Shown here: piece by piece, positions 477 through 59,794 of the stretch
Layout of the letters: each line of letters opens with the position of its first letter
Numbering within the stretch: the stretch's first letter is position 1
Assembly (NCBI GenBank): GCA_963827665.1
Contig: CAWHBQ010000006.1
Location: 191,953 to 255,952, forward strand
Reading direction: 5' to 3'
DNA: 64,000 nt
Origin: an uncultured Oscillospiraceae bacterium
Lineage (GTDB): Bacteria; Bacillota; Clostridia; Saccharofermentanales; UBA5734
Notes under the pieces: model-generated
Databases searched by the model: none
Seen by the model: the letters and a program-made list of their open reading frames with translations, nothing else
What the model was told of the DNA's origin: nothing
Position numbers and translations under genes: made by a program

Positions 477-754
477 CGGGAGGCCCCCTTCACCATGAGC
501 TGAACCACACCCCGCATTACAGCATGGCCTCATGATCATTTTAAACCTAATTTTAATCATTGGCATCGCACCCCGCTTTTTGTAGATCAGAATGATGGCC
601 TGTACCCTGCGAAACAGGCCGCGGGTATCATTACCCCGGAAAGTGTGTTATGATACTTTTAATAATCAATAAATCCGCTTGAACTGGCCGCAATTTCCGT
701 TCTGTGGAAATCGCGGTTTTTTGATGCATAAAACCCAACCGATTAGGAGAAACA

Positions 755-2146: not shown

Positions 2147-2166
2147 TCATACCGGATCAAACAAAA

Positions 2167-2202
2167 AGATAGGACTGTCATCAGACAGTCCTATCTTTTT
2201 TT
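2167..2202 (+). terminator. Rho-independent terminator of the helicase gene (13-bp perfect stem, ATCA loop, T7 tract)
   Basis: agataggactgtc-atca-gacagtcctatct followed by ttttttt, seen directly. Confidence 0.85.
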
Positions 2203-2206
2203 GCCT

Positions 2207-4110: not shown

Positions 4111-4137
4111 GAGGAGGCCGAAGTTAAGCGATCTGTA

Positions 4138-5034: not shown

Positions 5035-5077
5035 TGGATGACGAAACAGGACAGCGGATCAGAAACGTGATGAAAAC

Positions 5078-6010: not shown

Positions 6011-6079
6011 GAATAAATCCTCCTGGTACTATTATTAATTGCTTTGGGAACCAAATTCGAGTAGATTGCCAGATAAATT

Positions 6080-7093
6080 TTATTTATTTCTGGTCGCCAT
6101 TTCATGGGCGATTTCGATAATCCAGTCCTCCTGGCCGCCAACGGCTTTGCGATTGCCCAGTTCCATCAGGATGTCGCGGACATCGACGCCAAAGCGGGCA
6201 GCGGCACGGCGGGAGTGAAGCAGGAAGCTCGAGTAGACGCCGGCGTAGCCGAGCATCATCGGATCGAGCATGCTATTGATGTGGAGCCCTTTGGCTTCGA
6301 GAATCGGCAGCAGGATGTCGCGGGAGACGTCCATCGCCTTGTAGAGGTCAGCACCATGTTCAAATTTCATCTTGTTGAGAACGGCGATCAGTGTTTCAGT
6401 CGGCGTATTGCCAGCACCAGCACCGAGTCCGGACAGTGAACCGTCGACATACGTTGCGCCAGTTTCGACTGCCGCAAGGCTGTTGGCGATCGCACAGCCC
6501 AGGTTGTTGTGAGCGTGATGGCCGACCGGCACTTTCAAGTTGGAGAGCAGGGCCGAAACACGTTCCTTGACCTGGTCAGGCACCAGGGCACCGGCAGAGT
6601 CAGTCACATAAACGACATCAGCCCCGTAGGATTCCATTTTCTTGGCTTCTTCGACCAGCCGTTCGGCACTGGTCATGTGGGCCATCATCAGGAAACCGAC
6701 TGTCCACAGGCCCATGTCCTTGGCTGCACGGATATGCTGGGCTGATACGTCTGCTTCGGTCACATGCGTGGCGACGCGGACGACCTTGGCGCCGGCATGC
6801 TTGGCTTCCTCGAGCATCTCCACTGTGCCGATGCCGGGGAGCAGGAGGACACAAAGCTTTGAGGTTGTGAGAACGCTGGCAGCTGCTTTGATGATCGAAA
6901 GGTCGTCATACTTGGCAAAACCGTAATTGATGGTCGAACCATTGATGCCGTCACCGTGGCCGACTTCGATGATGTCGACCCCGGCAGCCTGCAGGCCAGC
7001 TGCAACCTTGGCGACGTCATCCGGTGAAAACTGGTGGGATACGGTGTGGTTTCCGTCTCTTAAAGTCGTGTCATTCAGGAAAATCTTAGCCAT
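6080..7093 (-). CDS. 4-hydroxy-2-oxovalerate aldolase (DmpG/MhpE/BphI family)
   Basis: Internal start [23 protein letters not shown] with RBS GGAGGTG. The ORF-track 495-aa frame extends upstream without support. HMGL-like TIM barrel plus DmpG C-terminal communication domain. 8-nt overlap with the upstream dehydrogenase. Confidence 0.9.
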
Positions 7094-7967
7094 TGGCAGC
7101 ACCTCCCAGTTTTTTGACGGCATATCTTTCAGCGATGTTGACAGCTGCGGCTGTGATGATGTCGAGGTTGCCTGAGTAAATCGGCAAGTAATCGCCAAGT
7201 CCGGTGACCTGGACCATAGTGGTGACAATATCGTCTTGGATGATCGGTTCGAGCAGGAGTTTGTAGCCCGGGACATAGGTGCGGATTTTTTCGACCATTT
7301 CGTCGACTGCCGCCTTGACCTTTCCCAAGTCAGGATTCCTGACTTTGGTGTAGATCGTGTTGCGCATATGGATTGGCGGTTCCGCAGGATTGAGGACAAT
7401 GATGACACGGGCTTCATCGGCCCCACCGATTTTTTCAAGCGCGTGCTTGGTTGTGACGGTGAACTCGTCAATGTTCGCCCGGGTGCCCGGGCCGGCGCTT
7501 TTACTGCTGATGGAGGAGATGATTTCGGCGTAGGATACGCCAACAGCTTTGTTGATTGCGGCCACAATCGGGGTCGTTGCTTGTCCGGCGCAAGTAACTA
7601 GGTTGACATTTGGAAGTTCAAGGACATCATCATCGAGATTGACTGCCGGAACGACATAAGGTCCGACTGCTGCTGGCGTCAAGTCGAGGGTGAAGATGCC
7701 CTTTTCCTTCAGCAGGGGTGCATTGGTCAGATGGGCTGTGGCACTGGTGCAGTCAAAACAGATATCGATGTCCTCGCAGTCTTTCATCAGACCTTCGATG
7801 CCGTCAGTCGTTGTCTTGATGCCGAGCTGGGCAGCTGTCGCAATGCCGGCCGAATCTTTGACACCGACCATATAAGCGACTTCCAGATTCGGACTCCGCT
7901 TAATTTTCTGCAATAGATCCATGCCGATATTGCCAGGTCCGATAATTGCAACCTTTACTTTATCCAT
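7086..7967 (-). CDS. Acetaldehyde dehydrogenase, acetylating (DmpF/MhpF/BphJ family)
   Basis: [19 protein letters not shown]ossmann N-terminus, catalytic Cys region (DCTSATAHL). ATG at 7967 with RBS GGAG. The track start is an upstream GTG. Confidence 0.9.
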
Positions 7968-8082
7968 AAACAATCGCACTCCTGTGAACGAAAATTGTGT
8001 GTAATGACTAATTCGATCCTAGCAGACGGCAAAATGATTGTAAATAGATTTTCGAAATATTATCACTATATCAAATTTGATT

Positions 8083-8112
8083 TGACAATGCCGTAAATAT
8101 TAACTTATTATG
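8083..8112 (+). promoter_or_regulatory. Putative sigma-A-type promoter (TTGACA -18- TATTAT) in the divergent region, oriented toward the ferredoxin gene
   Basis: Hexamers read directly in the AT-rich 230-bp divergent intergenic region between the meta-cleavage operon and the ferredoxin/iclR side. Confidence 0.3.
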
Positions 8113-8213
8113 AACATCAAAGAAACGGCTCTTTCATGCATCTTTTTACATGCGCATGCGGTTGCGAGTCTGAGAAAATGCAATTATGATGACGTCAAAT
8201 GACGGAGGTTTTT

Positions 8214-8507
8214 ATGCTGAAAGAAAGGTATGAAGTTGAGATTGTAAACAAAGGCATGACTTTCATCTGCCTGGCAGAAGAAAGTGTCCTGAATGGCGCT
8301 GAACGCGCTTTCCCACGCAATCCACTGGTTGGATGCAGGATGGGTGGATGCGGTTTTTGCCGTGTACGGGTCATTTCAGGCTCCTATGAATCAGGACGGA
8401 TGAGCCGGGCCCACACTTCTCCTGAGGAGCAGCAGGAAGGCATAGTCCTGGCGTGCAGGATCTATCCGCGCAGCGATATGAAGGTTGAATACCTTGGCCT
8501 GAAATAG
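8214..8507 (+). CDS. Plant-type [2Fe-2S] ferredoxin, XylT/DmpQ-like (reactivator of extradiol dioxygenases)
   Basis: CxxxxC..C...C ligand pattern (GCRMGGCGFCRV ... LACRIYP), about 97 aa. RBS GGAGG upstream of ATG 8214. Located beside the meta-cleavage operon. Confidence 0.75.
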   Translation: MLKERYEVEIVNKGMTFICLAEESVLNGAERAFPRNPLVGCRMGGCGFCRVRVISGSYESGRMSRAHTSPEEQQEGIVLACRIYPRSDMKVEYLGLK

Positions 8508-8791
8508 ACCGCAGCCTTGTTCAGTCTCTCATCGGCAATCCTGCATCAAGTTCGGCTGTCCTTTCAGAATGTCAAAACCTGGCTTGGTCATTATTCGGTG
8601 ATCAGAGTCAGTCAGACAACTGAATTTGGCATCAGCATAAAATTTACGATATTATCAAAATATATTGCGAAATCTTATCGGGCATGTTAGTGTCATCCTA
8701 GAATCTGTTTAATATATTCAAACGATCTGGAATTCAGAAGTGCATTTTCGGCCTTCCTGATCCCGGTTCATAGCCAGATGGATGAAGCACG

Positions 8792-9559
8792 ATGATGAGT
8801 AAGCAGAAACCAGTTCAGTCCGTTGAACGAGCCATTTCAATCCTGAAATGTTTCACCAGCAAGAAAACCGAACTAAAATTGTCCGAGATAGCCTCGGAAC
8901 TTGGTCTCAACATCAGCACGGTCCACGGCATCGTGATGACCCTCAAGCAAAATGGCTTGCTGGAGCAGAGCGAAGAGTACCAGAAATACCGCCTGGGTTA
9001 TTCACTGATTGAATTAGGCGATCGTGCTGCGAATTCCCTCGACATCCTCCGCCTGTCGTTGCCGATCATTAAGCCATTGGGGGCCAGAATCGTCGAAACC
9101 GTCCACATTGCCACACTGGATCAGCTGGAAGTCATCTACATCCAAAAAGAAGAGTCGACACAGTCGATGCGTATCTATACAACAATTGGCTCACGAAATC
9201 CAGCCCACTGTACCGGCGTCGGTAAAGCCATGCTGGCTCATCTGGATGCTGAGGTCCTGGAATCGATCATTCCGGAAAAAATGGATCGGTTCACTGCCAA
9301 TACCCTGACACTCAAATCAGAACTGATCAAAGAGCTGGCTACGATCCGAGCCAATGGCTATGCGATCGACAATGAAGAGATTACGGAGGGGTTGACTTGT
9401 GTGGCTGCTCCAATCTTCGACCATCTCGGCCGAGCCAGTTATGCCATCAGCATTTCCGGGCCGACCTTGCGGATGACCCGGGAGAAAATGCGTGAAGCAA
9501 TCGAACTGATCCAGCCAGCAGCAGCCGAACTGTCGCATCGACTCGGTTTCCGCGGATAA
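8792..9559 (+). CDS. IclR-family transcriptional regulator
   Basis: N-terminal wHTH (VERAISILKCF...LSEIASELGLNISTVHGIV) plus C-terminal IclR effector domain. 255 aa. Confidence 0.9.
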   Translation: MMSKQKPVQSVERAISILKCFTSKKTELKLSEIASELGLNISTVHGIVMTLKQNGLLEQSEEYQKYRLGYSLIELGDRAANSLDILRLSLPIIKPLGARIVETVHIATLDQLEVIYIQKEESTQSMRIYTTIGSRNPAHCTGVGKAMLAHLDAEVLESIIPEKMDRFTANTLTLKSELIKELATIRANGYAIDNEEITEGLTCVAAPIFDHLGRASYAISISGPTLRMTREKMREAIELIQPAAAELSHRLGFRG

Positions 9560-9665
9560 AAACTGCCTGAAATCATCCTGTTTTTTAACATTTACAGCCA
9601 CAAATCCTCGCCCATCCCGATTGCCCTGTATCCGTCAAATTCAATCATCAGGAGGAAAATCCACT

Positions 9666-10460
9666 ATGAGTCAAGCCACCCCCGTTGCCCATGAAAAACT
9701 CAAGGAACTGGCTTCTGCCCTGCGCCAGGCTGAAAAAACGTGCGTCCCGATCGGACCCGTATCGAAACTTGCGGATCTGACCATTCCCGACGCCTACGCG
9801 ATCCAGTTGATGAATATCAACGACAAACTGGCCGAAGGGCAGAGGATTACCGGTAAGAAAATCGGTCTGACCTCACTAGCCATGCAGAACCTGCTCGGTG
9901 TCAACCAGCCCGACTTCGGCCATCTGCTGGATTCGATGGCTGTCAAGAACAACACGATCGAAATCAAAACCATGGTTCAGCCCAAGGTCGAAGGTGAAAT
10001 TGTCTTTGTCCTGAAAAAAGACCTCCAGGGACCTGGCATCACCGTTGAAGACGTCCTTGATGCCACCGATTACGTGGCCGCAGCGATCGAAATCGTCGAC
10101 AGCCGTGTCGCGGACTGGAAGATCAATATCATCGACACCGTCTCGGACAACGCTTCCTCTGGCATGTATGTCTACAGCGACAAGCATGTCGATCCGCGGA
10201 CCATTGACCTCAAGGCTGTGACCATGGACTTGCTTCGCAATGGCGAGAAAATCAACAGTGGCAAAGGTACGGACGTCCTTGGTGATCCTGCAAACTGTGT
10301 CGCCATGCTGGCCAACCAGCTCGCTGAATTCGACGTCACGCTGAAGGCCGGCGAAGTCATCCTGGCAGGCGCATTGTCAGCCATGAAAGCGGTTGAAGCC
10401 GGCGATGTCTGGACGGCATCATTTTCCGAACTAGGCGAGTGCTCGGTCAAATTCGTATAA
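9666..10460 (+). CDS. 2-oxopent-4-enoate (2-keto-4-pentenoate) hydratase (MhpD/BphH/TodJ family)
   Basis: Fumarylacetoacetate-hydrolase-fold hydratase family signature (KKIGLTS...QPKVEGEIVFVL...GAL). RBS CAGGAGG upstream of ATG 9666. Confidence 0.85.
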   Translation: MSQATPVAHEKLKELASALRQAEKTCVPIGPVSKLADLTIPDAYAIQLMNINDKLAEGQRITGKKIGLTSLAMQNLLGVNQPDFGHLLDSMAVKNNTIEIKTMVQPKVEGEIVFVLKKDLQGPGITVEDVLDATDYVAAAIEIVDSRVADWKINIIDTVSDNASSGMYVYSDKHVDPRTIDLKAVTMDLLRNGEKINSGKGTDVLGDPANCVAMLANQLAEFDVTLKAGEVILAGALSAMKAVEAGDVWTASFSELGECSVKFV

Positions 10461-10475
10461 GTCTGTGCCATTGGT

Positions 10476-10520
10476 TTGAATACAGATCCTGCCGGATTGA
10501 TAAAACGATCCGGCAGGATT
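10476..10520 (+). terminator. Rho-independent terminator after the hydratase gene
   Basis: atcctgccggat-tgataaaacg-atccggcaggat followed by ttttttg. A perfect 12-bp stem. Confidence 0.85.
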
Positions 10521-10568
10521 TTTTGTTCTGCGCGCCCGCTTGCAATAGCCTTGATGACAAATGGCGTA

Positions 10569-10598
10569 GATGACATCAGGAACAAATGACCTCTATAA
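10569..10598 (+). promoter_or_regulatory. Putative promoter (aTGACA -18- TATAAT) upstream of the membrane-protein gene
   Basis: Hexamers read directly, 30 nt upstream of the RBS CGGAGG and ATG 10631. Confidence 0.3.
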
Positions 10599-10630
10599 TG
10601 AAACTAAAGTAAATCACCCGGAGGCTTTGC

Positions 10631-11386
10631 ATGGACTGGCTTGACTTCGTTTTTATGGCGGCACCGACACTGTTGCTGTTTGCGATCGGTTACCTGATCC
10701 GGTTTCGCAAAGCCTATTGGCTGATCTCAGGTTACAACACAATGTCTGCAGCCAAAAAGCAAAAAGTGGACACCGAGAAACTTGGCCGTTTGATGGGGAA
10801 CATGTGTTTCCTCATGGGCGCGATCATGTTCACCGGTATCCTGCTGATCTATTTTCGGCTGGCTGTCCTCGGATTCATCATCCTCGGCTGTTTGATCCCG
10901 GTGATCTTATACATTCTCATTGCCGCCCAGAAATATGATGGCAATAATTTCGACGAATCCGGCCGCATGAAAACGGGTGCCAAAATCATTGTCGGGTCGA
11001 TTGTCGTTGGTTTGCTGGTCCTGTTGTCTTTTGTCGGCAGCCTGGTCTACCAGGGTTTTCAACCCTCTGCAATCGCGTTTGATGGGGCCGTCTTGAAAAT
11101 CAGTGGATCTTATGGCCAATCGATCCTGGTCCAGGATATCCAGGCCCTCCAACTGACTGAAGAACTACCAGTCATCGAAATGCGAACGAATGGCTCCGCG
11201 ATTGGCGACCGGTTGCGCGGCCATTTTCGCCTGCAGGATATCGGCCAGGCGATGCTGTATCTTAAGATTGGCAATCCACCCTATGTCTCGATCCGGACTG
11301 CGACGCAGAAAATCTATCTCAATCTGGAAACACCTGAACAGACACAAAGCCTGTTTTCGCAAATCGACAAGGCCATGCACCCATAG
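10631..11386 (+). CDS. Membrane protein: DUF3784-like N-terminal half (GYNTMS...EK..KYD pattern) and a bacterial-PH-like C-terminal half
   Basis: 3-4 predicted TM helices and the DUF3784-like signature. No enzymatic motif. Confidence 0.55.
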   Translation: MDWLDFVFMAAPTLLLFAIGYLIRFRKAYWLISGYNTMSAAKKQKVDTEKLGRLMGNMCFLMGAIMFTGILLIYFRLAVLGFIILGCLIPVILYILIAAQKYDGNNFDESGRMKTGAKIIVGSIVVGLLVLLSFVGSLVYQGFQPSAIAFDGAVLKISGSYGQSILVQDIQALQLTEELPVIEMRTNGSAIGDRLRGHFRLQDIGQAMLYLKIGNPPYVSIRTATQKIYLNLETPEQTQSLFSQIDKAMHP

Positions 11387-11482
11387 CACACCAAAAGCGA
11401 TGCAGCATTTATGCAGCATGAGCAGGGCTGCAAATTTACTGGCTGGCCATTGACTGGCTAACAAAGAGGGGTTCATATCCAT

Positions 11483-11854
11483 ATGGTACTGAAAATTCTG
11501 GATGGAGAATTTACCGTCGGCCAGGCGACCGATTTTTCCGAGGTCGATTTCCAGGCTGACTTCCTTTTCCTGGCTAAAACTGATGAAGAGGTTTCGATTG
11601 TTTGCCGGACAAAAAAGGCACCAGCCAACCTGACAGCAGCTGAGTATGGGTGGCGCGCTTTCAGGATCGAAGGACAACTGGATTTTTCCCTGGTCGGCAT
11701 CCTGGCCCGGATCGCCTCAATCCTGGCTCGGCAGCAGATCAGTGTCTTTGTCGTGTCGACCTTCAGGACAGATTATGTTCTGGTCAAGTCAAAACAACTG
11801 GCACTGGCGATCGACGCCCTCACAGCCGCCGGGTATGTGTGTGAATCGTTGTAG
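11483..11854 (+). CDS. ACT-domain-containing protein
   Basis: 123 aa, beta-alpha-beta-beta-alpha-beta ACT-like pattern with conserved Gly (LVGILARIASILA). Small regulatory-domain-only protein. Confidence 0.6.
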   Translation: MVLKILDGEFTVGQATDFSEVDFQADFLFLAKTDEEVSIVCRTKKAPANLTAAEYGWRAFRIEGQLDFSLVGILARIASILARQQISVFVVSTFRTDYVLVKSKQLALAIDALTAAGYVCESL

Positions 11855-11893
11855 TTTCGATAAATTGCCTGTTGAAGTGGTGAGGGACGATCG

Positions 11894-12424
11894 ATGAACC
11901 GGAAAATCATCCTGAATCTGGCGATGAGTCTCGATGGTTATATCGCCGATGAGAACGGCCTTTTTAATTGGATTAAAGGTGATGGCAGCAAGGCTTTGGA
12001 CACTCAAACCAAATGGGACTATGCCAAGTTCCTTGAGCAGGTTGACCTTGTGGTCATGGGCCGGAAATGCTATGACCAGGGATTAATCGAAGACTTCAAA
12101 GACAAGCAGATTCTTGTCGCCACATCGCAAAACCGCCAGGATGTCGATAACATCCGGTTTATCAGCGGGGATATTTGCGATTATGTCCTCCGGGAACGCC
12201 AGAAAGAAGGCGATGACATCTATCTGTTCGGCGGCGGCGTGCTGGTCGATCCTTTCATCAAAGCCGACATCATCGATGAATATATCATCGGCGTCATTCC
12301 GATCATTCTTGGCCGGGGAAGGCTACTCTTTTCAGGTGGTCATTCGGCCATCCCGCTTAAACTGGAAGAATACATCATCGAAGAAGGTGTCGTTATCTTG
12401 CGCTACATTCGGCGGTCAATGTAA
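11894..12424 (+). CDS. Dihydrofolate-reductase-like family protein (RibD C-terminal domain / YwjB-like)
   Basis: MNRKIILNLAMSLDGYIADENG ... LVMGRKCYD ... IYLFGGG signature of the RibD_C/DHFR-like family. Confidence 0.8.
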   Translation: MNRKIILNLAMSLDGYIADENGLFNWIKGDGSKALDTQTKWDYAKFLEQVDLVVMGRKCYDQGLIEDFKDKQILVATSQNRQDVDNIRFISGDICDYVLRERQKEGDDIYLFGGGVLVDPFIKADIIDEYIIGVIPIILGRGRLLFSGGHSAIPLKLEEYIIEEGVVILRYIRRSM

Positions 12425-12604
12425 TATCCGAAGCGATCAACAGTCGATTGAACATTGTTTGTCACTCCTTCGTGAACCTGCAGGATCAGTCGTCCGAGCC
12501 AGCTTTGTCGATTGAAATCCATGGCATCATCTAGCTACCATTTTGGTACGGGCCAGATGGAAATATCCTCGAACAGGATGCATAATCAAGTTAGAGGATT
12601 ACCT

Positions 12605-15160
12605 ATGAATCATTCTGACGCGACTTCGGTCACGGATTCTGTTCGTCAGGACAAGACTTTGTCAGGTTTGGATGCTCAGACTGTCCTGGACCGCAGGGCC
12701 CAGTATGGCGAGAACAGGCTTCCCGGTGAAGTCGGTGTTTCGGTTTGGGAAATCCTGCAAAACCAAATCAAGAGTCCTTTGGTCTATATCATCCTGGCCG
12801 CAGCTGGCGTCTCGCTGGTGCTCGGTGAATTCGGAGATTTCGGCATCATCATGGTTGTTGTGGTTGTCGATGTCATCATGGGGTTGATCCAGGAATATAA
12901 GGCTCAGCAGACCTATGTCGCTTTAAAAGGCTTGTTGCACCCGACGACAACCGTCATCCGGGACGGACAGCGACTTGAAGTTGAGGTTTGGGAACTGGTT
13001 CCTGATGATCTGGTTGTCCTGTCTGCCGGTGAAAAAGTTCCCGCCGACGGGATTCTGATTGAAGCGACAAAATTGACCCTCGATGAATCGGTCCTGACAG
13101 GTGAAAGTGAACCGGTCAACAAAGAATCAGGGGTCATCAGGACTGGCTTGACAGATCAAGGCATGATGGCAGAGCCAGGCGTCTCGGCAACAGACATAGC
13201 TCAAGACACTCGTGTTTTCATGGGCACAACCGTAGTCACTGGAAGGGGCATTTTCCGGGTCCGGCAGACCGGACTCGCGACTGAACTGGGCCAGATCGCT
13301 GCAAGTATCAGCAGTCAGGCTGAGGAAGATACGCCTTTCCAGATCCGATTGAAATCTTTCAGCAAACTCCTGACTCGAGTCGTTGTCAGTTTCACGGTAC
13401 TGATCCTCATCGTCGGCCTGATCATGGGCCGAGAATTCTTCGACATGCTGCGCACCGCAATCATTCTGGCGATCGCGGCCGTCCCGGAGGGATTGCTGAT
13501 TGCTGTCACGGTCATCCTTGTCCTGGGCATGCGCAAGATCCTGAAGCGCCAGGGCCTGGTCAAGAAATTGCTGGCAGTTGAAACCTTGGGCTCAGTCACT
13601 GTCATCTGTACCGACAAAACAGGCACCTTGACTGAAGGCCGGATGAGGGTCAACCGTACCGATCTGGACGATGAGACCAAAGCTTTGCAGGCGATGGTGC
13701 TTTGCAATAATCTCGAGGGCCCCGTCGATATTGTCCTCTGGGCGTTTGCAGAGCAGAAGCTGGCGATCGCCCCGCAGACCTTGATGGATCAGACCGAACG
13801 GCTGGCCGAGGAATTATTCACGAGTGAAACAAAATTCATGATAGTCGAAGTCACTGGCGGCCCATTTGGCGCTGGCCATGCCTGTTTCCTCAAAGGCGCT
13901 CCGGAAATCGTCCTGGCGATGTGCCATGTTCAGGACGATCAACTGCAGGGCATCTCGGCAGAAGTCGACGCATGGGCAGGTGAAGGCCTGCGCCTGATCG
14001 GCTTGGCCTACCGCTTCGATGGCCCGTTCGAAGATCATAGTGGATATACTTGGCTTGGCTTGGTTGGCATGGAAGATCCGATCCGCGAAGCCGTCCCCGC
14101 TTCGATTCAGGCTGCCCGCCATGCCGGCATCCAGATCAAGATGATCACCGGCGATTACCGCCTGACCGCAGAGCGCATCGCTGAAGAAATCGGCCTGAAA
14201 GACGATGCAAGCCAGACTTTGGAAGGTGAGGAAATCGCCAGGCTGTCTGATGCCCAGCTTCAGGCAGAAGTCGGGCGGACCTCCGTTTTTGCCCGGATCC
14301 GGCCCCAGGATAAGTTCAGGATCATCAAAGCACTGCAGGCGAATGGTGAAATCACGGCGATGATCGGTGACGGGGTCAACGATGCACCCGCCTTGAAACG
14401 TGCCAACATCGGTGTTGTGGTCGGCTCTGCCACTGATGTGGCCAAAGAAACAGCGGACCTGATCCTGCTCGATAGTTCGTTCAGTACGATCGTCGCCGCG
14501 ATCGAAGAAGGACGGGTCATTTTTGCCAACATCCGGAAAGTCGTTGCCTATACCTTGTCCAACTCATTTGCCGAAGTCCTGACAATTTTCACAGCGATGA
14601 TCCTGCGCTGGCCACCCCCATTGATTGTAGCCCAGATTCTCTGGATCCACCTGATTTGCGATGGTCCTTCGGACATTGTCCTCGGGTTCGAACCCAAAGA
14701 AGATGGCATCATGGCGGAAAAGCCTCGAGCACTGAAAGAACCGGTCCTGACCCGGCTGGCGATCGTCCTGATCGGCGTCATCAGCATTTTCAGCGCCATT
14801 TTCACCCTCATCCTGTTCCATCACTTTTATCAGGTTCACCAGAGTGCGATTGAAGGCCGCAGTGTTGTCTTTGCCAGTTTTGCCATTAATTCGATGGTCT
14901 ATATCTTTGCTTACCGCAGCATGCGCCTGCCCCTCTTCCGGATGAACCGCCTGTCGGCCAACAAGCCCCTGATCTGGGCAGTTCTCGGGGGCGTCCTGAC
15001 AGCACTCGTCGCTTTCTGGGTCCCAGGTTTACGCGAACTGCTCGGACTAGTCCCCCTCACGTGGACCGAATGGGCACTCGTCTTCGGTTTTGCCCTGTCA
15101 CTGCTAGGGATAGTCGAGATCGGCAAAGCAATCGCCAATCGATCGTCCGATATAAATTGA
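12605..15160 (+). CDS. P-type cation-transporting ATPase (type II, Ca2+/Mg2+-like)
   Basis: DKTGTLT phosphorylation motif, TGES actuator motif, KMITGD, GDGVNDAPAL hinge, 10 TM. Start chosen at MNHSD (RBS GAGG), 31 codons inside the track ORF. Confidence 0.9.
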   Translation: MNHSDATSVTDSVRQDKTLSGLDAQTVLDRRAQYGENRLPGEVGVSVWEILQNQIKSPLVYIILAAAGVSLVLGEFGDFGIIMVVVVVDVIMGLIQEYKAQQTYVALKGLLHPTTTVIRDGQRLEVEVWELVPDDLVVLSAGEKVPADGILIEATKLTLDESVLTGESEPVNKESGVIRTGLTDQGMMAEPGVSATDIAQDTRVFMGTTVVTGRGIFRVRQTGLATELGQIAASISSQAEEDTPFQIRLKSFSKLLTRVVVSFTVLILIVGLIMGREFFDMLRTAIILAIAAVPEGLLIAVTVILVLGMRKILKRQGLVKKLLAVETLGSVTVICTDKTGTLTEGRMRVNRTDLDDETKALQAMVLCNNLEGPVDIVLWAFAEQKLAIAPQTLMDQTERLAEELFTSETKFMIVEVTGGPFGAGHACFLKGAPEIVLAMCHVQDDQLQGISAEVDAWAGEGLRLIGLAYRFDGPFEDHSGYTWLGLVGMEDPIREAVPASIQAARHAGIQIKMITGDYRLTAERIAEEIGLKDDASQTLEGEEIARLSDAQLQAEVGRTSVFARIRPQDKFRIIKALQANGEITAMIGDGVNDAPALKRANIGVVVGSATDVAKETADLILLDSSFSTIVAAIEEGRVIFANIRKVVAYTLSNSFAEVLTIFTAMILRWPPPLIVAQILWIHLICDGPSDIVLGFEPKEDGIMAEKPRALKEPVLTRLAIVLIGVISIFSAIFTLILFHHFYQVHQSAIEGRSVVFASFAINSMVYIFAYRSMRLPLFRMNRLSANKPLIWAVLGGVLTALVAFWVPGLRELLGLVPLTWTEWALVFGFALSLLGIVEIGKAIANRSSDIN

Positions 15161-15390
15161 CTGGGGTCAATTTTCTATGACTTGCTCCCACTACTCGACT
15201 CGTCAGTAATAAATTGACAGCGGTCAGTTTCTTACGACTTGCTCCCACTACTCGACTCGTCGGAAATAAATTGACAGCGGTCAATTTCTTATGACTTGCT
15301 CCCACTACTCGACTCATCGGTCATAAACTGACGGGGGTCAGTTTTCTATGACTTGCTACCGCTACTCGACTCGTCCGATATAAACTGACC
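15152..15390. repeat. Tandem direct repeat: four 57-bp units (15152, 15209, 15266, 15323) plus an 11-bp partial. Each unit contains the TTGACAGCGGTCAA palindrome.
   Basis: Units are about 90% identical. The array begins in the last codons of the ATPase gene and ends inside the last codons of the convergent lipoprotein gene. Each unit re-encodes DESSSGSKS-stop on the minus strand. Confidence 0.95.
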
Positions 15391-17391
15391 CAAGTAGGGC
15401 TTCAGGCTCTGGACTGTCCTGGTGATGTAGTCGTCGACGGCCATGCTCTGGTTGAAGTTGCCCTTGTCGGCCATGGTCTTGACGAAAGGTTTCAGTTTCT
15501 CCTCCAGACCAGCAGCGGTGAGATCCCAGGCCGCTGATTTGGCCCCTTCGATACAACCTTTCCGTTCATTGTTCTCATAGTCAAACGCCCAGTGATAGGC
15601 CCATTTATACATGAAGAAACCGCCGATCCACTTGTAGGATACTTCAGGATCGGAGAAGTACTTGGCGTCGATCGAGCCACCCAGGACACTGCTGAAGCGA
15701 TTGTAAAGCAAGTCATAGACGATGCCCATCCAGGTGTCAGTGCTCTTGACGGTGACATACTTGGCGATCATGTCCTGCGCCAATTCTTTGCACTGGGTGG
15801 CGACAATCGCGCCAATCGGACCGGTCAAGGTGCCGAGGACAACGTTGAATGCCCGGTCATTCAGCCATTGCACCCATTCGGCCGTGTAAAGGGCCCAGTC
15901 ATACCAGGCTGCTTCATCATCATAGTCGGCTTTCTGCTTCATGATGATGTCGTACGCGACACTCCAGGTTTCCTTGCGGTACTGCTTCAGGTCATCGACA
16001 CCCATGTAGTGCTTGCAGTCTTCCAGCTCGGCCAGCTTGGCTGGGCGTTTGGAGACCGGAAAGAAGTTATTGATGATCTTCTTGCAGTAATCATATTCCT
16101 GCTGCCAGCTGCCCTTGCTCTCGGACAGATAAGCCGGCAGGATCGCAAACGGAATCTCGACATCGAAATAGTCGAGGCCATTGTCGACCGTAGCCGTGAG
16201 GGTGAACCTGTAGCGTTCCCCCTTTTTACCTGGGATGACTTTGTCCAGGTAAATTGAGAATTTGCCGGTTGGTGTGTTTGAAGGGCGTTCGCCTTCGAAA
16301 TTGGTGACGAGGTTGGCGGTTTCCAGGAGCGCTTCGGCTTTTTCATCTTTCGGATCAGGATCGGACAGCGAAAATTCATCACTGGCAAACACGGCAGTGT
16401 CCGCCTTGAGTTTCTTGCCCTCGTTGTCCCAGCGCTGGTAGCACAGGTCGAAGATAGACGCTTTCATCGCACCGCCGCTGCCTTCACTGCCCTCGGCCAA
16501 TTCAGCCTTGATCAGGAACGCATTGGTTTCACGGTCAAAGTCCAGCGTTTCCATCCGGAACAGCCCCTCACGCCAGACATATACCTCACAGTAGTCGCTG
16601 AGCTCCTTATCTCCCTGGCTCGCCCGGACAACCAGCTTGCCTTTTGAATAGTGATCTTTGCTACCACCACTGGTTTCTTCGGAGTCACATTCCGTCACGA
16701 CCAGTTTGGCCTTGTTGCCCAGTTCCGAAACGTCTTGAAGCTCGAAATTGCATAATTTCTCAGCACCAAATTCTGGCTCTGGGGACGACATCTGCCAAGG
16801 TTCAGCTCCCGGATTTTTAATGTCGACGGTGAACTCGGCGGACTCGCCGGATTTGGAGAGGAAATTGCAATTGAGCGGCTTGATCACAAGTGAGGCCTCG
16901 GCCTCATAGGGGAGCCGGAAAATGACCGAGTATTTCTTCTTGGCGTGGGTGCAGCGGGCTTTGATGACGATTTTCGCGGGCGGGGCGGAGGTGACATTTG
17001 CTGGTGTGATGCCGGTGACGATAACCGCAGCCCAGTCACCGATCATTTCCATCGGGCTGACATCGACCCAGCCAGTCCCTGTTGAGACCTGATAGGAGAT
17101 GCTGGCTGTCTCATCGGGCAGGACGACAAGCCCTTGTTCGGTCATGGAACAGCATTGGGTATACAGGAATACCGGATCACCGCCGGAAACGATCTTTTCA
17201 ACCCCTTCAGGCATCAAGGTTTTCTGGAGGAAAAAATTATCATCCCCTGGATTTTCCTGGTCCGGATTGTCTTGAGTCGTATCAACGTCCTGACAGTTGC
17301 AGGAGGCCAGGATACCTGCGAGGGTTGTAACGGCTGCTGCGGCAAAGCTGCTGCTGCTGGAGTTGGTTACAAAATCTGTTCTGTACTTCAT
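15346..17391 (-). CDS. Large secreted lipoprotein, uncharacterised (681 aa)
   Basis: Lipobox ILAS-C after a hydrophobic stretch. No recognisable catalytic motif. Last gene of a tight 3-gene minus-strand operon. Confidence 0.6.
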   Translation of the reverse strand: MKYRTDFVTNSSSSSFAAAAVTTLAGILASCNCQDVDTTQDNPDQENPGDDNFFLQKTLMPEGVEKIVSGGDPVFLYTQCCSMTEQGLVVLPDETASISYQVSTGTGWVDVSPMEMIGDWAAVIVTGITPANVTSAPPAKIVIKARCTHAKKKYSVIFRLPYEAEASLVIKPLNCNFLSKSGESAEFTVDIKNPGAEPWQMSSPEPEFGAEKLCNFELQDVSELGNKAKLVVTECDSEETSGGSKDHYSKGKLVVRASQGDKELSDYCEVYVWREGLFRMETLDFDRETNAFLIKAELAEGSEGSGGAMKASIFDLCYQRWDNEGKKLKADTAVFASDEFSLSDPDPKDEKAEALLETANLVTNFEGERPSNTPTGKFSIYLDKVIPGKKGERYRFTLTATVDNGLDYFDVEIPFAILPAYLSESKGSWQQEYDYCKKIINNFFPVSKRPAKLAELEDCKHYMGVDDLKQYRKETWSVAYDIIMKQKADYDDEAAWYDWALYTAEWVQWLNDRAFNVVLGTLTGPIGAIVATQCKELAQDMIAKYVTVKSTDTWMGIVYDLLYNRFSSVLGGSIDAKYFSDPEVSYKWIGGFFMYKWAYHWAFDYENNERKGCIEGAKSAAWDLTAAGLEEKLKPFVKTMADKGNFNQSMAVDDYITRTVQSLKPYLGQFISDESSSGSKS

Positions 17392-17396
17392 AATCT

Positions 17397-18491
17397 CTAA
17401 TACCTCGATCCTTTTTCGTCACAGAGCGTGATATCCGGGCTGATCGGGCAACCACCGAGACATAGCTCCCGTTTGCTGCACGAAGGACATGACTGTTGGT
17501 GGAAATTTCGGAACGCATCAAATGCGCTGCTGCGCCAGGCCTGCTGGATCGAATGCGTGCGCAAGGAAACGCCCCACTGCTGATGCTGGTCAAAACTGCA
17601 GGGCACCATCTGCAGATCAGTTGTGATATAGGCTGAATACCTGGCAGCTTCACACGCATCATAGCAGTCCTTATCGACGACCCGAGTGCTGTTCAGCACC
17701 CCGGGGACGCTGCAGCTGTCAAAACCGATTTTGGACAATCCATACGGGGTGTCGATCAGCGAGAAAAAGTGGCGTGTCCGCTCATCGAACGTGATCATAT
17801 CTTCTTTGCGGCCTTGGCCAATTGGTTTGAACAACAGGAAGATGATCCGGTTGATGCCCTCGGGCAACCGCTGGTTCTCGATCAGATCGATTGCCTCATC
17901 GATGCTTTGCCGACTGAGCACATAATGGATGTTGACTTTCGATCCGGCTTCAAGCAGCAGGTCAATGGCCAGGCGGGTGTAATCATTGCGGTACCAGCTG
18001 ACGGCCGATGCGCCGCAATACTGGCTGATCAGGCGCGCTTTTTCCCGGTCGAGCTGGAAGCCCGATGTCGTCATATTGGGAACAATCCCATTCTCCCTGC
18101 TGTAGGCGAGGATTTCCGCAAAATGCTCATGCTGGTCCGGATCGCCACGCCCGCCGAGCGCAAACTGGAAGACTTTCCCCTTGCACTGGTCGACAACGAG
18201 CTTGAAGTCCTCGAGCTGCATATTTGGCTGGGTGATCGTGGCGCCACTCTGGTAGCAATAATTACCAGCGGCGCTGCAACGCCCGGAAAGACCGTGGTTG
18301 CAATGGCCCATGATCCCGACATCCAGCAAATGGGGGAAGGAAGATCGGAAAGGATCAACCCCTGTGTCTGTGCCGGATTCATCAAGCAGGCCTGTGCGCA
18401 GGTATTCACCCGTCCGGGGATTGAAGAAGCTGTTAAACGACAGCTCTTCATCGGCGAGACGGATAAAGGGGCTGTTGCTATTTCCGGGCAT
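17397..18491 (-). CDS. Cys-rich radical-SAM/SPASM-like enzyme with non-canonical N-terminal Cys spacing
   Basis: C-terminal twitch/SPASM pattern CYDACEAARYS...C...SCPSCSKRELCLGGCP (Cx2Cx5Cx3C). N-terminal cluster reads GHCNHGLSGRCSAAGNYC (CX7CX6C) instead of CX3CX2C. Gly-rich GGRGD like a SAM-binding GGE motif. 364 aa. Confidence 0.5.
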   Translation of the reverse strand: MPGNSNSPFIRLADEELSFNSFFNPRTGEYLRTGLLDESGTDTGVDPFRSSFPHLLDVGIMGHCNHGLSGRCSAAGNYCYQSGATITQPNMQLEDFKLVVDQCKGKVFQFALGGRGDPDQHEHFAEILAYSRENGIVPNMTTSGFQLDREKARLISQYCGASAVSWYRNDYTRLAIDLLLEAGSKVNIHYVLSRQSIDEAIDLIENQRLPEGINRIIFLLFKPIGQGRKEDMITFDERTRHFFSLIDTPYGLSKIGFDSCSVPGVLNSTRVVDKDCYDACEAARYSAYITTDLQMVPCSFDQHQQWGVSLRTHSIQQAWRSSAFDAFRNFHQQSCPSCSKRELCLGGCPISPDITLCDEKGSRY

Positions 18492-19371
18492 GCTTGCCCC
18501 CTGTGAAATGCAGCACCAGGCCGGCGGCCAGGATGATCAAACCGGCGACAAAGCCGACAGGACTGTTGTAGCTTTGGGCAAACAAGCCAGGTACAAACGC
18601 GAGGGCCAGTCCGAGGGCAAAACCGGCGATCGAGATATAGGTGGACTGCATCGAGATCTTGAGGTTCTTGCCAGCCAGCAGCGGCAGGTCGCGCAGTCCG
18701 GTCGAAACCAGCCGGACCACCGGGCTGCCAGTCCCCTTGGACAAATCATCGACCAGTGCAACTGCAGCCAGCAGGCAGACCAGGTATTTGTCGATTTTGT
18801 TGTTCCGGGTCAGGATATTGGAGGCAATCAGGCCAAAGCCGCCGCTGATCAGGATGATTTTCGGGGCCACATGCCTGCCCCGCTTGATCACATTTTTGAT
18901 CAAAGTGAAGGTGCGGCCGTAGCGTTCTTTGATCTGGGCGAGTTCGCCGGCCTTGATTCGTTTGATGGTTGGAATGATAGTCCGGCTCATGATCGTAATG
19001 AATGCTGCTTTACCAATAAATCCATTATAAGTGGCTGTCAGGAAAATCAGTGTCATGACGATTGAATTCAGCGCCTGCGGCATTCTGAGCATCGTCATCA
19101 CTTTGATCGGCCAGAGGATCAGCCAGAGAAGCACCAGGGGTCCGAGCCAGTAAATGTCTTTTTTCAACCGCTGGGGCAAGGCTTTGAAATTAGCCAGGAC
19201 GATACCGGTCAACAAGGTGAAGAAACCCTGGGTCGGCAACTCTGCGTCAATCCCGGCGGGTGTCTGGCCGGACTCGGCTTGCTGACCGGCTCTTTCTGAA
19301 AAGCCCCGCAGAATCGCACCGGTTGGCACAGGGATTGGGGAAATCGGGAATTTGTCACCTGGATCTTTCAT
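18478..19371 (-). CDS. Polytopic membrane protein, uncharacterised. First gene of the operon, overlapping the Cys-rich enzyme gene by 14 nt.
   Basis: 297 aa, 6-7 hydrophobic helices. Strong RBS AAGGAGGAG upstream of ATG 19371. Confidence 0.6.
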   Translation of the reverse strand: MKDPGDKFPISPIPVPTGAILRGFSERAGQQAESGQTPAGIDAELPTQGFFTLLTGIVLANFKALPQRLKKDIYWLGPLVLLWLILWPIKVMTMLRMPQALNSIVMTLIFLTATYNGFIGKAAFITIMSRTIIPTIKRIKAGELAQIKERYGRTFTLIKNVIKRGRHVAPKIILISGGFGLIASNILTRNNKIDKYLVCLLAAVALVDDLSKGTGSPVVRLVSTGLRDLPLLAGKNLKISMQSTYISIAGFALGLALAFVPGLFAQSYNSPVGFVAGLIILAAGLVLHFTGGKHARK

Positions 19372-19653
19372 TCAGGATTCTCCTCCTTGGCTTGCTATGG
19401 ACATTCGATCGGTTATGATTCAAATGATTCAAGTGTCTGTGCGGGGTGCACGGGCGATTGGACAAAAAGCGCATTTAAACGGTCAAAATTTACTTCATTA
19501 TAATGCAAAAGAACCAGAAGATGAGTATCAAAATAGGATAAAATTGTAACCAGATATGAACCACTTTTTCCGGGCCTGAAATCAATCTTCTGTGTGATGC
19601 TGATTTATTGAAAAAGTGTGATCCTGCCGACCTGATCTTGAGGTTGAAATAGC

Positions 19654-22600
19654 ATGAAAAAGTTATTTGAAACACTCTTCGAAAACAATCCCGCTCCGAT
19701 GGCGATCAGCTCGGACCATCAATTCATTGAGGTCAATTTGGCTTTCCTGGAAATTTTCGGCTATCCAAGGCAAGAAGTCATTGGCAAGTCGCTTTTTGAG
19801 CTTGGCCTCTTCAATGATGCTGAGATCTACCAGCAAATCATGGGTGAAATCAATACGACCGGCCGACTGAAGCAAAAGGAAATCCATGTCATTTGTCAGG
19901 ATGGCCGAATTGTCGATGGCATGTATTCAGGCGAAATCATTGAGTACAATGACCGACAATGCCTGCTGTCGGTCCTGGTGGACATCACAGAAATCAAGGC
20001 TTTGAACCTGCGTATCGAGCAGGAACGGCAAAGATTGTTCAATGTGATCGAGGGGACAAATATCGGTACGTGGGAGTGGAATATCACCACTGGCGAAACG
20101 ATTTACAACGAACGTTGGGCCGAGATCATCGGCTATACGCTGGCGGAATTGCAGCCGGTTTCGATCTCGACCTGGGAAAAATTCGCTCATCCGGATGATC
20201 TGATAAAGTCCAGTGAACTTCTTCAGCAGCATTTCGCCCGGAGACTCGAGTTTTATGAGTCTGAAAGCCGGATGAAGCATAAGAACGGCAGCTGGATCTG
20301 GGTGCTCGACAAGGGAAAAGTCGTGGAATGGGACAGTGACGGCCGGCCGCTCAAAATGTTTGGCACGCATACCGATATCACCGAGTTTAAGCAGCGGGAA
20401 GAATCTGAGCATTTCTTCGCTGTCAGTCCGGACTTGCTGCTCATCGCCGATTATGATTGCCACGCGCTCAAATTGAGTCGGTCCTGGACGACCGTTCTGG
20501 GGTACCAGCTGGAAGAAATCGAGAATCAAGTACTATATGATTTTGTCCATCCGGAGGACCTGGCTGCAACCCGCCTGGCTATTGGCGGCATTATCGCTAA
20601 CCAGGAAATCACTATTTTTACGAATCGGTATCGCTGCAAAGACGGTTCGTACCGCTTCCTCGAATGGCGGTTGCAGCCTTTTGCCGGCAAGATTTTCGCC
20701 ACCGCGCGTGACATCACGGAACTGAAGCTGAAGCAGACTGAGCTTCAGGAACGCGTCAAAGAATTGACTTGCCTGCACAATGTCAGCCGCATGATTGCCA
20801 ACCCGGGCTTGTCAGAGGACGTTTTCTGCGCCGGTGTTGCCACCTCGCTCAACCTGATTCTCCACCATCCGGAACATGCGACCACGGTGATCGAGATCAG
20901 GGGCCGGCGATATCAGTCCGGACCAGTGATTGATCCGAATGGCGAGTCACTGGAATGCAGCATGGTCGTTAACGATAGGACTGTCGGCCGCATCGCCGCC
21001 TATCATCCGGCGGGCACAGCATTTCTGCTGCCTTTCGAGCAGAATCTGGTCAACAATCTGGCCAGTATGCTCAGCCTATGGGTCCAAAGCCAGGATTACA
21101 AGTCCGAGATGCACAAATTCGTCCAGGCTGTCGACCAGTGCGGCACGAATATTGTCATCACCAACACCTTTGGTATCATCGAATACGTCAACCAGGCTTT
21201 TCTTGCCACAACTGGCTATACAAAAGATGAAGTGATCGGCCAGAACCCGCGATTCCTGCAATCCGGGCTGACACCGGCTGAAACGTACGAAGATTTATGG
21301 CGGACCATTTTTGTCGGCCAGACTTGGCGCGGCGAATTCTGCAACCGCACCAAGACCGGGGAACTGTACTGGGAAATTGCTTCTGTCTCCTGCATCCGTG
21401 ATCAGCATGGCAAAATCACCCATTTCCTGGGGGTCAAAGAAGACATTACTGCCCGAAAACACGATCAGGAACGCATCGCTGATGCCCTGGCGTTCAACAA
21501 GACCATCCTGGATTCATCACCATTCGGCATCCTCATCTACAAGGCGTCCGGCAGGTGTATTTCAGCCAACGCCGCAGCCGGTGTGATCACCGGAAAGACG
21601 CACGAGGAACTGCTGGCGCACGACTTCCATGCTTCAAAATCATGGAAAGCGTCCGGCCTGTACCGTGCAGCAATGAAAACACTGGAAACTGGCGATCCAG
21701 TCTCAGCCGCAGTGCATTGCCAGATTTCGACTGGCCGGGAACTCTGGCTCAATTACACCTTCAATCCATTCATGATCGGCGGCGAATTGCATCTGCTCCA
21801 CATGTTCCAGGATGACTCCCTGCGCCAGAAAGCTGAGGAAGAATTAAAGCTTACCAATGAGAAACTTGAAGTTATTGTCAAAGACCTGGAAGTCAGCAGG
21901 AACAATTCCGACTTGCTCCGCCAGTTGGGCGATATGCTCCAGATCTGCCATGAGGTCAAGGAGGCGTTTGATATCATCGAACCGTTCATCCCCAGCCTTT
22001 TCCCCGATTCCACTGGCACCCTATATATGCTTGATGCCAACTTGCGAACGGTATCCGCAGTATTGAGCTGGGGCGGGCAGGTGGACTCCGATCCGGTTTT
22101 CAGTCTGGAAAATTGCTGGTCGCTGCGCAGCAACCAGACCCATTTCACCAACACAGCCCTGCCCGGGCCAAAGTGCAAGTATATGGATGAGTCATTCTCG
22201 GGTATCTACCTGGACTTGCCCCTGACAGCATCGGGCGAAACGATCGGCCTGTTCCATTTAGAGTGGTCAGGCCTCAAGAATCTCCCCACACAAGTCCAGA
22301 GTCTCGCCCAGATCATGACTGAGCACATCGCCCTGGCACTGGCCAATATCCGGCTTCGTGAGAGACTGGTCTACCAGTCCGTGCGAGATCCGTTGACCGG
22401 CGCCTTCAACCGGCGCTACATGGAAGAGACACTGGCGCGCGAAGTCATGCGCGCAAGACGGTACAATAAATCACTTGGCCTCATGATGATTGATATTGAC
22501 TATTTTAAAAAGTTCAACGATACCTATGGCCATGCTGCCGGAGACCTCGTCTTGAAAAACCTCAGTACGTTGCTCGCGACCAATGTCCGGACCAGCGATA

Positions 22601-59532: not shown

Positions 59533-59794
59533 AGGTGTTCGGAATATCCAGTTGTCGTTTGAAGACCTCGCGTTTGTCATCAGGGATTCCGCTTTAGTGA
59601 TCGACGATTTTAGCCCGTTAGCCCAGGACGCGGTGATGCAGCTGATCGACCCGTATGGCAAATCGGCCGATCAGCGAGCAGGCCAGAGCAGCGGTCCGGA
59701 TCAACAGGAAATCGCCGAGCCTGGTCAGGAAAATCACCCATCCGCAGATGAAAATGATCTGCCGTTTTGGTGGCGGCAAGATGCCGGCAGCTGA
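59525..59794 (+). CDS. Small acidic hypothetical protein (89 aa)
   Basis: ATG with GGGGTG SD. Overlaps the upstream gene by 8 nt and the downstream gene by 14 nt. Confidence 0.4.
   Translation: MNEGVRNIQLSFEDLAFVIRDSALVIDDFSPLAQDAVMQLIDPYGKSADQRAGQSSGPDQQEIAEPGQENHPSADENDLPFWWRQDAGS

Follow-up and report, generated by a model that had tools for sequence, protein, structure and literature searches.

A 57-bp tandem array between two convergent genes: a probable minisatellite derived from a gene terminus

How does the end of a gene, stop codon included, come to be repeated head to tail, and do the extra copies matter to the genes on either side? This question is raised by a 57-bp tandem array in DNA from an uncultured Oscillospiraceae bacterium (assembly GCA_963827665.1, contig CAWHBQ010000006.1). 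We analyzed 64,000 nucleotides of this contig (positions 191,953 to 255,952 of the forward strand), which we call the window; positions below are counted from its first letter. The array lies at 15139-15389, between the gene for a P-type cation ATPase on the plus strand and a convergent gene for a 681-amino-acid protein on the minus strand. An earlier note, made from the sequence of the window, had described it as copies of a gene's 3' end joined to a palindrome. We see it as an ordinary lineage-specific bacterial minisatellite and not as a new system.

The array and its source

Tandem Repeats Finder (TRF) reports 4.4 copies at 15139-15389, with 85% matches, 0% indels, and a score of 327, and this is the one strong array in the window. 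An alignment of the units in register agrees with TRF. The array occupies the whole interval between the two convergent open reading frames (ORFs), and both stop codons fall within repeat copies: the TGA of the ATPase gene (15158-15160) is in unit 1 (U1), and the stop of the 681-aa gene (15346-15348; CTA on the plus strand) is in unit 4 (U4). The earlier note had this layout right, including the four units and a partial fifth. It had also called the units near-identical, which they are not: pairwise identity is 79-92%, with U2 and U3 as the closest pair (92%). A 26-mer from the unit has four matches at up to three mismatches, and none in 100 shuffles.

U1 (15139-15195) is homologous to the other units from about 15144, and its left end is cut by the junction with native ATPase sequence; it contains the final codons of the ATPase (SSDIN) and the TGA. 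In U2 (15196-15252), the minus strand reads ..QFITDESSSGSKS and then a stop over the U2/U1 boundary. U3 (15253-15309) is the sole unit with the exact 14-mer TTGACAGCGGTCAA (15271-15284), of which U1, U2, and U4 have variants. The right part of U4 (15310-15366) is the true 3' end of the 681-aa gene (..SSSGSKS and the stop), and its left part is the first pseudo-copy of that gene's tail. The partial unit 5 (U5; 15367-15389, 23 bases) consists of genuine codons of the 681-aa gene (G-Q-F-I-S-D-E-S). On this side, the repeat homology ends sharply at 15389/15390, or column 23 of the unit, which is the inner edge of the GTCAGTTT arm of the palindrome.

The unit of 57 bp is 19 codons long and is in frame with both flanking genes. 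Furthermore, every unit has a stop in the frame of each gene. On the minus strand, the array reads ...LGQFISDESSSGSKS, KTDPRQFMTDESSSGSKS, EIDRCQFISDESSSGSKS, and ETDRCQFITDESSSGSKS, each followed by a stop, and then KIDPSQFISDD...; on the plus strand, it reads ...AIANRSSDIN, LGSIFYDLLPLLDSSVIN, QRSVSYDLLPLLDSSEIN, QRSISYDLLPLLDSSVIN, and RGSVFYDLLPLLDSSDIN, again each with a stop. The third codon positions of the two frames share the same unit columns. Because copy number would change in steps of 57 bp, both frames and both stops would be kept, which bears out the statement that a change in repeat number leaves both ORFs intact.

The units come from the end of the 681-aa gene: each corresponds to the gene's terminus (42 bases, or 13 codons and the stop) and the next 15 bases. 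The note had reported that the minus strand re-encodes DESSSGSKS and a stop. This is read four times, and the full stretch is 13 residues, QF[IM][ST]DESSSGSKS. As was also reported, there are two codon sets: AGT GGG in U1-U3 and AGC GGT in U4. The pseudo-copies differ from the true tail by 0-2 amino acids. Among 24 full-length homologs of the protein (38-100% identity), 15 end with ..[IFM][SAET]-DE[SGRT]G.. at the same alignment position and in a single copy, which identifies QFISDESSSGSKS as the native terminus. In homologs from other organisms, the tail ..F-I-S-D-E-S-G-S-G is present as one native copy.

On the minus strand, each unit begins with GTCAGTTT (codons G-Q-F) and finishes with AAAACTGAC-CCCC, so a palindrome forms at each head-to-tail junction. 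The hairpin has one (pseudo-)coding arm and one arm from the 3' flank.

To ask if relatives have a similar array, we compared eight related loci (L001, L127, L128, L129, L130, L131, L133, and L134). In all eight, the tail occurs once, and the gene is not followed by a tandem repeat. In the closest relative, L001 (88% protein identity and 81% nucleotide identity), the alignment runs from the cassette that includes the 681-aa gene to the stop codon, and then ends. Instead of an array, L001 and L129 have G+C-rich stem-loops followed by T-runs downstream of the gene. By this comparison, the array is lineage-specific, and the single native tail in the homologs supports the proposal that the array was born by duplication of the end of the 681-aa gene.

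L131 has a tandem repeat of another kind, a perfect 28-bp repeat of 2.2 copies (L131:4766-4827) about 240-300 nt downstream of the homologous gene. It is unrelated to the array and is not derived from the gene's terminus.

The ATPase junction and the surrounding genes

The ATPase gene (12605-15160, plus strand) encodes a P-type (Ca2+-type, IIA-like) cation ATPase of 851 amino acids. It starts with ATG at 12605, with GAGG upstream, and its exact product is in the protein collection. Sixteen close homologs end with ..VEIGKAISNR-xHxxD and a stop; the protein from the window ends with ..VEIGKAIANR-SSDIN and a stop. Native homology ends at ..GKAIANR (the Arg codon is at 15140-15142), exactly where the repeat homology begins, so the last five codons and the stop (SSDIN and TGA) are the antisense of U1. 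The Pfam C-terminal domain is complete before this repeat-derived end.

On the far side of the ATPase gene lies a remnant of a Usp-like gene (12393-12472, minus strand), with a ribosome-binding site (GAAGGAG) and about 15 native codons; it is read as MFNRLLIASDITLTAECSAR and a stop. Within it, 12421-12472 aligns with the start of the Usp-like gene of L001, over its ribosome-binding site and first ~15 codons (blastn E = 8e-6; local alignment score of 52 versus a maximum of 25 in 300 shuffles). In L001, the Usp-like gene is directly downstream of the cassette, and a Usp gene also follows the cassette in L128. Because the 5' remnant is beyond the ATPase gene, we consider the ATPase gene to be an insertion, with the array at its junction. 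Comparison of these loci shows an insertion between the cassette and the Usp remnant to be the simplest reading. ATPase homologs at 70-74% identity carry the labels Anaerolineae or Chloroflexi wherever they are labeled. Base composition is even across the region, with no hint of recent foreign origin.

The Usp-like remnant adjoins the stop of a RibD_C-domain gene (11894-12424), which implies a second rearrangement junction at that point.

With moderate confidence, we favor the explanation that the array is a local minisatellite at a rearrangement scar: microhomology or slippage duplicated the gene's terminus, the copies expanded and diverged, and any present effects are incidental. First, the last 13 codons of the 681-aa gene, the stop, and the next 15 bases would have been duplicated head to tail. 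The duplication was most likely mediated by microhomology, or arose by slippage during replication, on the GTCAGTTT(AT) motif that starts every unit, and further expansion would have brought the array to at least 4.4 copies. Since each unit starts with GTCARTTT and ends with AAAYTGAC-N4, an 8-bp A/T-rich stem-loop would have appeared at every unit junction.

Second, the ATPase gene would have been inserted. The ancestral order, which is still found in L001, would be the cassette, a spacer of ~240 bp with a G+C-rich terminator, and the Usp-like gene. The 2.7-kb ATPase gene would have entered the spacer in convergent orientation, possibly joining across CGA microhomology; its native last five codons would have been lost, and U1 would have been cut. 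Third, we infer that the units diverged to their present identities, with one compensatory change in a stem and one-sided lengthening of the stems in U2 and U4. At present, the array is the whole shared 3' region of both genes and supplies the ATPase's stop. As many as four modest stem-loops would be present in each transcript, and these may cause pausing or termination or may shield 3' ends; we take these effects to be incidental.

Compared to the earlier note, the repeat-derived end of the ATPase, the insertion of its gene, the match in frame to both genes, and the wobble-biased drift described below are new.

The 681-aa gene (15346-17391, minus strand) is the last gene of a three-gene cassette. 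Its product has no match in Pfam or NCBIfam. It had been called a lipoprotein, and the lipobox-like motif L-A-S-C is indeed present at residues 30-33, but no family match supports the name. Upstream are the genes for a SPASM-domain, radical-SAM-like protein of 364 amino acids (17397-18491, minus strand) and for a 297-aa protein with no family match (18478-19371, minus strand). The SPASM protein scores 23.4 bits against Pfam's Radical_SAM, below the cut-off of 29.5, and its cysteine motif is C-x8-C-x6-C, not CxxxCxxC. Judging from the relatives that we fetched with upstream sequence, the cassette (proteins of ~300 aa without a Pfam match, ~365 aa with SPASM, and ~675 aa) is common to them, and the neighborhoods otherwise differ. 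In metagenome contigs, the relatives of the locus are N-terminal fragments only.

The first 16 residues of the 681-aa protein (MKYRTDFVTNSSSSSF; 17344-17391, minus strand) are invariant, bar one position, in all 24 homologs. The same N-terminus heads unrelated proteins of ~135 amino acids (L123:4001-4420, L124:4001-4399, L125:4001-4405, and L126:4001-4414), three of which are on a single 502-kb metagenome contig. Neither Pfam nor NCBIfam has a model for this N-terminus. It looks like a shared leader or recognition module.

Another ORF (86 aa, 15057-15317, minus strand) lies in the third frame, is open through three repeat units, so that SRVVGASHKKLTAVNL.. recurs, and continues antisense into the 3' end of the ATPase gene. 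Its ATG arises from a G-to-A change specific to U4 (column 7). Since we see no ribosome-binding site for it, and the variable columns of the unit are its second codon positions, it is most likely spurious.

Elsewhere in the window, there is a second tandem repeat at 60511-60614 (period 12/24 bp, 8.7/4.3 copies, 72-82% matches). It lies within the ORF at 59655-60707 and is presumably a peptide repeat.

Hairpins, unit variation, and alternative explanations

The note had placed a palindrome in each unit. As an inverted repeat of 8+8 bp (AAAYTGAC-N4-GTCARTTT), this is correct; as the exact 14-mer in U3, it is not. The hairpins are at 15154-15173 in U1 (AAATTGAC-TGGG-GTCAATTT), 15211-15230 in U2 (AAATTGAC-AGCG-GTCAGTTT), 15268-15287 in U3 (AAATTGAC-AGCG-GTCAATTT), and 15325-15344 in U4 (AAACTGAC-GGGG-GTCAGTTT). 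All four 8-bp stems are intact on the plus strand. One pair varies on both sides: it is T-A in U1 and U3, T.G in U2 (a U.G pair in plus-strand RNA and a C.A mismatch in minus-strand RNA), and C-G in U4, where it is the sole compensatory change in a stem. With four sequences, this covariation is not significant, as 243 of 500 shuffles reached it.

The minimum free energies of the units range from -8.6 to -16.2 kcal/mol. U4 has the longest stem, with 14 pairs and a 3-nt bulge (-16.2 kcal/mol on the plus strand and -14.9 kcal/mol on the minus strand). Only U2 on the plus strand (z = -2.05) and U4 on the plus and minus strands (z = -2.57 and -2.92) fold clearly better than shuffles; U1 and U3 do not (z = -0.24 and -1.22). 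Bases found only in U2 or U4 (columns 10, 12, 13, 37, and 40) have invariant pairing partners, and these pairs extend the stem, in two different registers. In U2, the changes at columns 12, 13, 37, and 40 give a 4-bp extension.

Across the array, 13 columns vary between units, and 8 of the 13 are at the shared wobble position (binomial p = 0.035). In the 3' flank, 4 of 15 columns are variable. Some of the wobble signal is of mundane origin. At columns 49 and 52, the changes are in the functional copy, which tolerates silent changes only, and the changes at columns 10, 13, 37, and 40 are those that lengthen the hairpin. Also, U1-U3 have an invariant 26-mer in common, which suggests that they share a recent ancestor.

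Several observations count against a minisatellite whose effects are incidental. In the 42 coding-homologous columns, variation is found at 8 of 14 wobble columns versus 1 of 28 non-wobble columns (Fisher p = 0.0002), and neutral drift of dead copies beyond both stops should not give such a bias. Among the 1024 variants that combine all bases at columns 10, 12, 13, 37, and 40, the one-sided stem-lengthening changes place U2 in the top 5% and U4 in the top 1.3% (plus strand), which is a hint of selection, or of templated mutation, on the structure. At the distal end, the ATPase junction has destroyed the boundary of the array, so microhomology arms are not demonstrable there. The order of events, with the array first and the insertion second, is inferred only from the truncation of U1. 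Finally, the locus is carried by one assembly only, and the copy number is that of this single assembly.

The likeliest alternative is that the stack of stem-loops is selected as a bidirectional terminator or a 3'-end protector. It would replace the G+C-rich terminator that was lost at the insertion, and extra copies would persist because a single weak hairpin would be insufficient. Nothing but the array separates the two stops, and a conventional terminator is found at this place in relatives and not in the window. The four intact stems, the compensatory pair, and the unit-specific lengthening in U2 and U4 all fit with selection on structure. Also, the strongest hairpin, in U4, is nearest the stop of the 681-aa gene, and an A-run and a T-run flank each stem, as in bidirectional terminators.

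On the other hand, the stems (AAAYTGAC/GTCARTTT) have just 2-3 G-C pairs of 8, and their tails (UCUAUGAC or CUUAUGAC) have no clean U-tract; an intrinsic (Rho-independent) terminator has a G+C-rich stem and a U-tract. Our scan of 14000-16500 found no terminator-like sites, and the idea that the palindromes are iterated terminators is not supported. U1 and U3, which fold no better than shuffles, also do not exceed the average of the 1024 variants, and the covariation is a single pair in four sequences that many shuffles match. The hairpins are weak as canonical terminators. The rule set may be ill-suited to this organism, because there is no excess of canonical terminator-like sites in the window. 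On balance, selection for a terminator or 3'-end protector seems unlikely to us, though it deserves to be taken seriously.

Over positions 1-60000, the scan for terminator-like sites found 18, 29, and 23, versus 19.5, 21.4, and 20.2 expected from shuffled sequence. A clear exception is at 10484-10521, where a 16-bp stem is followed by a T-run. As for promoters, there are 35 promoter-like sites in 1-20000, about twice the shuffle expectation of 15.5, and several of the best matches are between 8000 and 8900. The units themselves were considered as promoters (TTGACA is present in U2 and U3), and we rejected this as no -10 partner was found.

A different concern is assembly error: a real but smaller duplication, of at least two copies, might have been inflated by a short-read assembler that cycled through strain variants. 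If so, the units would be the same gene end from co-occurring strains. The differences between units do resemble those between orthologs, in that the wobble positions vary and other positions do not, and just one contig in the collections has the locus. The ATPase and cassette proteins were found in the collection only on the same 670-kb contig, and for the exact 681-aa product there is no contig on record. The exact products of the radical-SAM-like gene and the 297-aa gene are also listed from Logan. The sole independent assembly that we came across is a 2.2-kb Logan contig (run ERR12035931), and it ends ~2 kb before the array, 117 bases into the 681-aa gene.

However, collapsed or expanded repeats are usually identical, and these units are 79-92% identical, with unit-specific combinations of changes. 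The junction sequence, where 3' flank is followed by GTCARTTTAT, requires at least one true duplication. Both ends of the array join unique sequence cleanly, and the locus sits on a contig of 670 kb. We think that inflation by the assembler is improbable.

The bias towards wobble positions could instead reflect constraint on the encoded protein. In this scenario, each unit is a ready, pre-terminated C-terminus for either gene, which would work after a 57-bp contraction or after recombination between alleles. Besides the wobble bias itself, all four stops in the minus frame and all five TGA codons in the plus frame have been kept (TAG and TAA alternate), the pseudo-copies stay within two amino acids of the real tail, and the tail motif is conserved in the family. 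But frequent expansion and contraction should homogenize the units, which differ by up to 21%, and the mundane components at columns 10, 13, 37, 40, 49, and 52 contribute to the signal. Also, the wobble positions of the two frames coincide, which means that the constrained frame is not identifiable, and the arrangement is in no relative. We therefore consider protein-level constraint to be very unlikely as an explanation for the array.

The related claim, that the extra units are interchangeable C-termini under codon-level constraint and are used via contractions or allele recombination, is nearly as improbable. If it were true, the junction would be "stop-codon buffered" on both strands, and the wobble-only variation would be a footprint of selection. 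Other readings of the wobble signal are that the units may be past or present working termini, different alleles, or a mosaic of strains made by the assembler. We rejected a "fossil record" model, in which the units are snapshots of an evolving functional end: it predicts about equal variation at wobble and non-wobble positions, and we observed 8:1 (binomial p ~0.02).

Could the palindromes be sites for a protein? The 14-bp palindrome, TTGAC-N4-GTCAA, occurs four times at a regular spacing of 57 bp, and such sites would bind a dimeric regulator or a nucleoid, partition, or replication protein. But the half-sites change together in U4 (CTGAC..GTCAG) and are asymmetric in U2, which suits base pairing better than recognition of a fixed site. 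In addition, a period of 57 bp does not correspond to an integral number of turns of the helix, the joining of units creates the palindrome as a side effect, with the Q-F codons as one of its arms, and there is no similar site upstream of any gene in the window. We find an array of binding sites highly doubtful.

Finally, we searched for copies of the unit beyond the array. With a profile of the unit, nhmmer --max found no other copy in the 64 kb (the next match elsewhere had E = 1.1). Loose patterns for the palindrome and the unit gave nothing else convincing in the window, where the sole other loose match to the palindrome is at 38900. The unit pattern had no matches in the metagenome_contigs or viral_contigs collections. 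Rfam gave no hit for 14800-15700 with E allowed to reach 10. For the genome collection, we scanned with a hairpin pattern, AAAYTGACNNNNGTCARTTTYYTA, which matched at least 120 stretches, with one site each, in unrelated A/T-rich genomes (a few palindromic sites were counted on both strands). Such a loose pattern cannot tell a dispersed unit from a local one in the source genome; among the matches listed, there was no tandem array, and the source genome did not appear. Within the reach of the window and of the metagenome and viral collections, the check that the note had called for finds no dispersed family of repetitive extragenic palindromes (REP) or bacterial interspersed mosaic elements (BIME). 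A REP/BIME-like family, or one like the mycobacterial interspersed repetitive units (MIRU), that is in tandem here by chance would fit with a 57-bp unit that is a multiple of 3, an internal palindrome, and an intergenic position, yet we give it hardly any credence, because the conserved coding end of the neighboring gene accounts by homology for 42 of the 57 bases and because the searches of the window (even at E up to 1) and of the metagenome and viral collections came up empty.

Several known systems were also considered and rejected. The array is not made of clustered regularly interspaced short palindromic repeats (CRISPR), as the note had recognized: the units adjoin one another, with homology across all 57 columns and no spacers. 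A diversity-generating retroelement does not fit either. No reverse transcriptase was found among the Pfam-scanned neighbors (11.9-27.3 kb), and the copies show differences such as G/A, C/T, T/A, and C/A, which fall at mixed positions and are not confined to template adenines. For an integron or shufflon, there was no recombinase among the scanned neighbors, and the copies encode the same tail, not alternatives. The 57-bp spacing is unlike that of iterons. An alternative genetic code, with TGA or TAG as sense codons, was rejected because homologs in both families end where the first stops lie.

Comparison with known systems

The direct importance of a local minisatellite of this kind is small. 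It is a clean, datable example of a minisatellite's birth from a gene's own terminus, and it suggests that an inserted gene that has lost its end can survive if the antisense of a neighbor's repeat supplies codons and a stop. If the copy number is variable, strains of this uncultured lineage could conveniently be told apart by the locus. The one feature that could lead further is that copies located past both stop codons vary with the periodicity of codons.

Like REP/BIME palindromes and bidirectional terminators, the array has a short stem-loop between convergent genes, with an A-run and a T-run on its flanks. Such a stem-loop could cause transcription from either side to pause or end, or could shield 3' ends. 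The array differs from them in that it is not dispersed in the window, its stem is A/T-rich, one arm is (pseudo-)coding, and it was not detected by the terminator scan. REP/BIME are defined by many dispersed copies and an extragenic origin, neither of which we see here.

The array does have the form of a minisatellite, that is, head-to-tail copies of a unit of ~10-100 bp. Variation in copy number between strains is what defines a VNTR (variable-number tandem repeat). The nearest described examples are the MIRU-VNTR loci of the Mycobacterium tuberculosis complex (Supply et al. 1997 and 2000, cited in PMC2734929; MIRUs are described in PMC12548453). Lineage-specific intergenic minisatellites are known from this complex, in which the rnc-fpg1 spacer measures 279-358 bp, compared with 1-54 bp in other mycobacteria (PMC2734929). 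Like MIRU-VNTR, the array consists of head-to-tail units with a length of 40-100 bp that is divisible by 3, is intergenic and touches the ends of the flanking ORFs, and is present in one lineage and absent from relatives. In contrast, MIRUs have many dispersed loci, are found between co-oriented genes, and are described as having an internal ORF that is coupled to the downstream start codon. The array is at a single locus as far as tested, has convergent flanks, is derived from the neighbor's 3' end, and has stops in both frames; instead of being coupled to a start codon, its units abut two stop codons.

Tandem repeats can be born by microhomology-mediated tandem duplication (PMC8639346; bioRxiv 10.64898/2026.02.28.708716), which is the dominant start of bacterial tandem repeats according to a 2026 preprint (10.64898/2026.02.28.708716). 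An array of this origin would be bounded by the microhomology arm, with n units and a terminal partial copy equal to the arm. Unlike young duplications of this type, the units of our array have diverged to 79-92% identity, and they include the gene's stop codon and 3' flank. As in these duplications, a segment with one copy in relatives became a multi-copy array, and the motif that starts the unit, GTCAGTTT, recurs exactly one period downstream.

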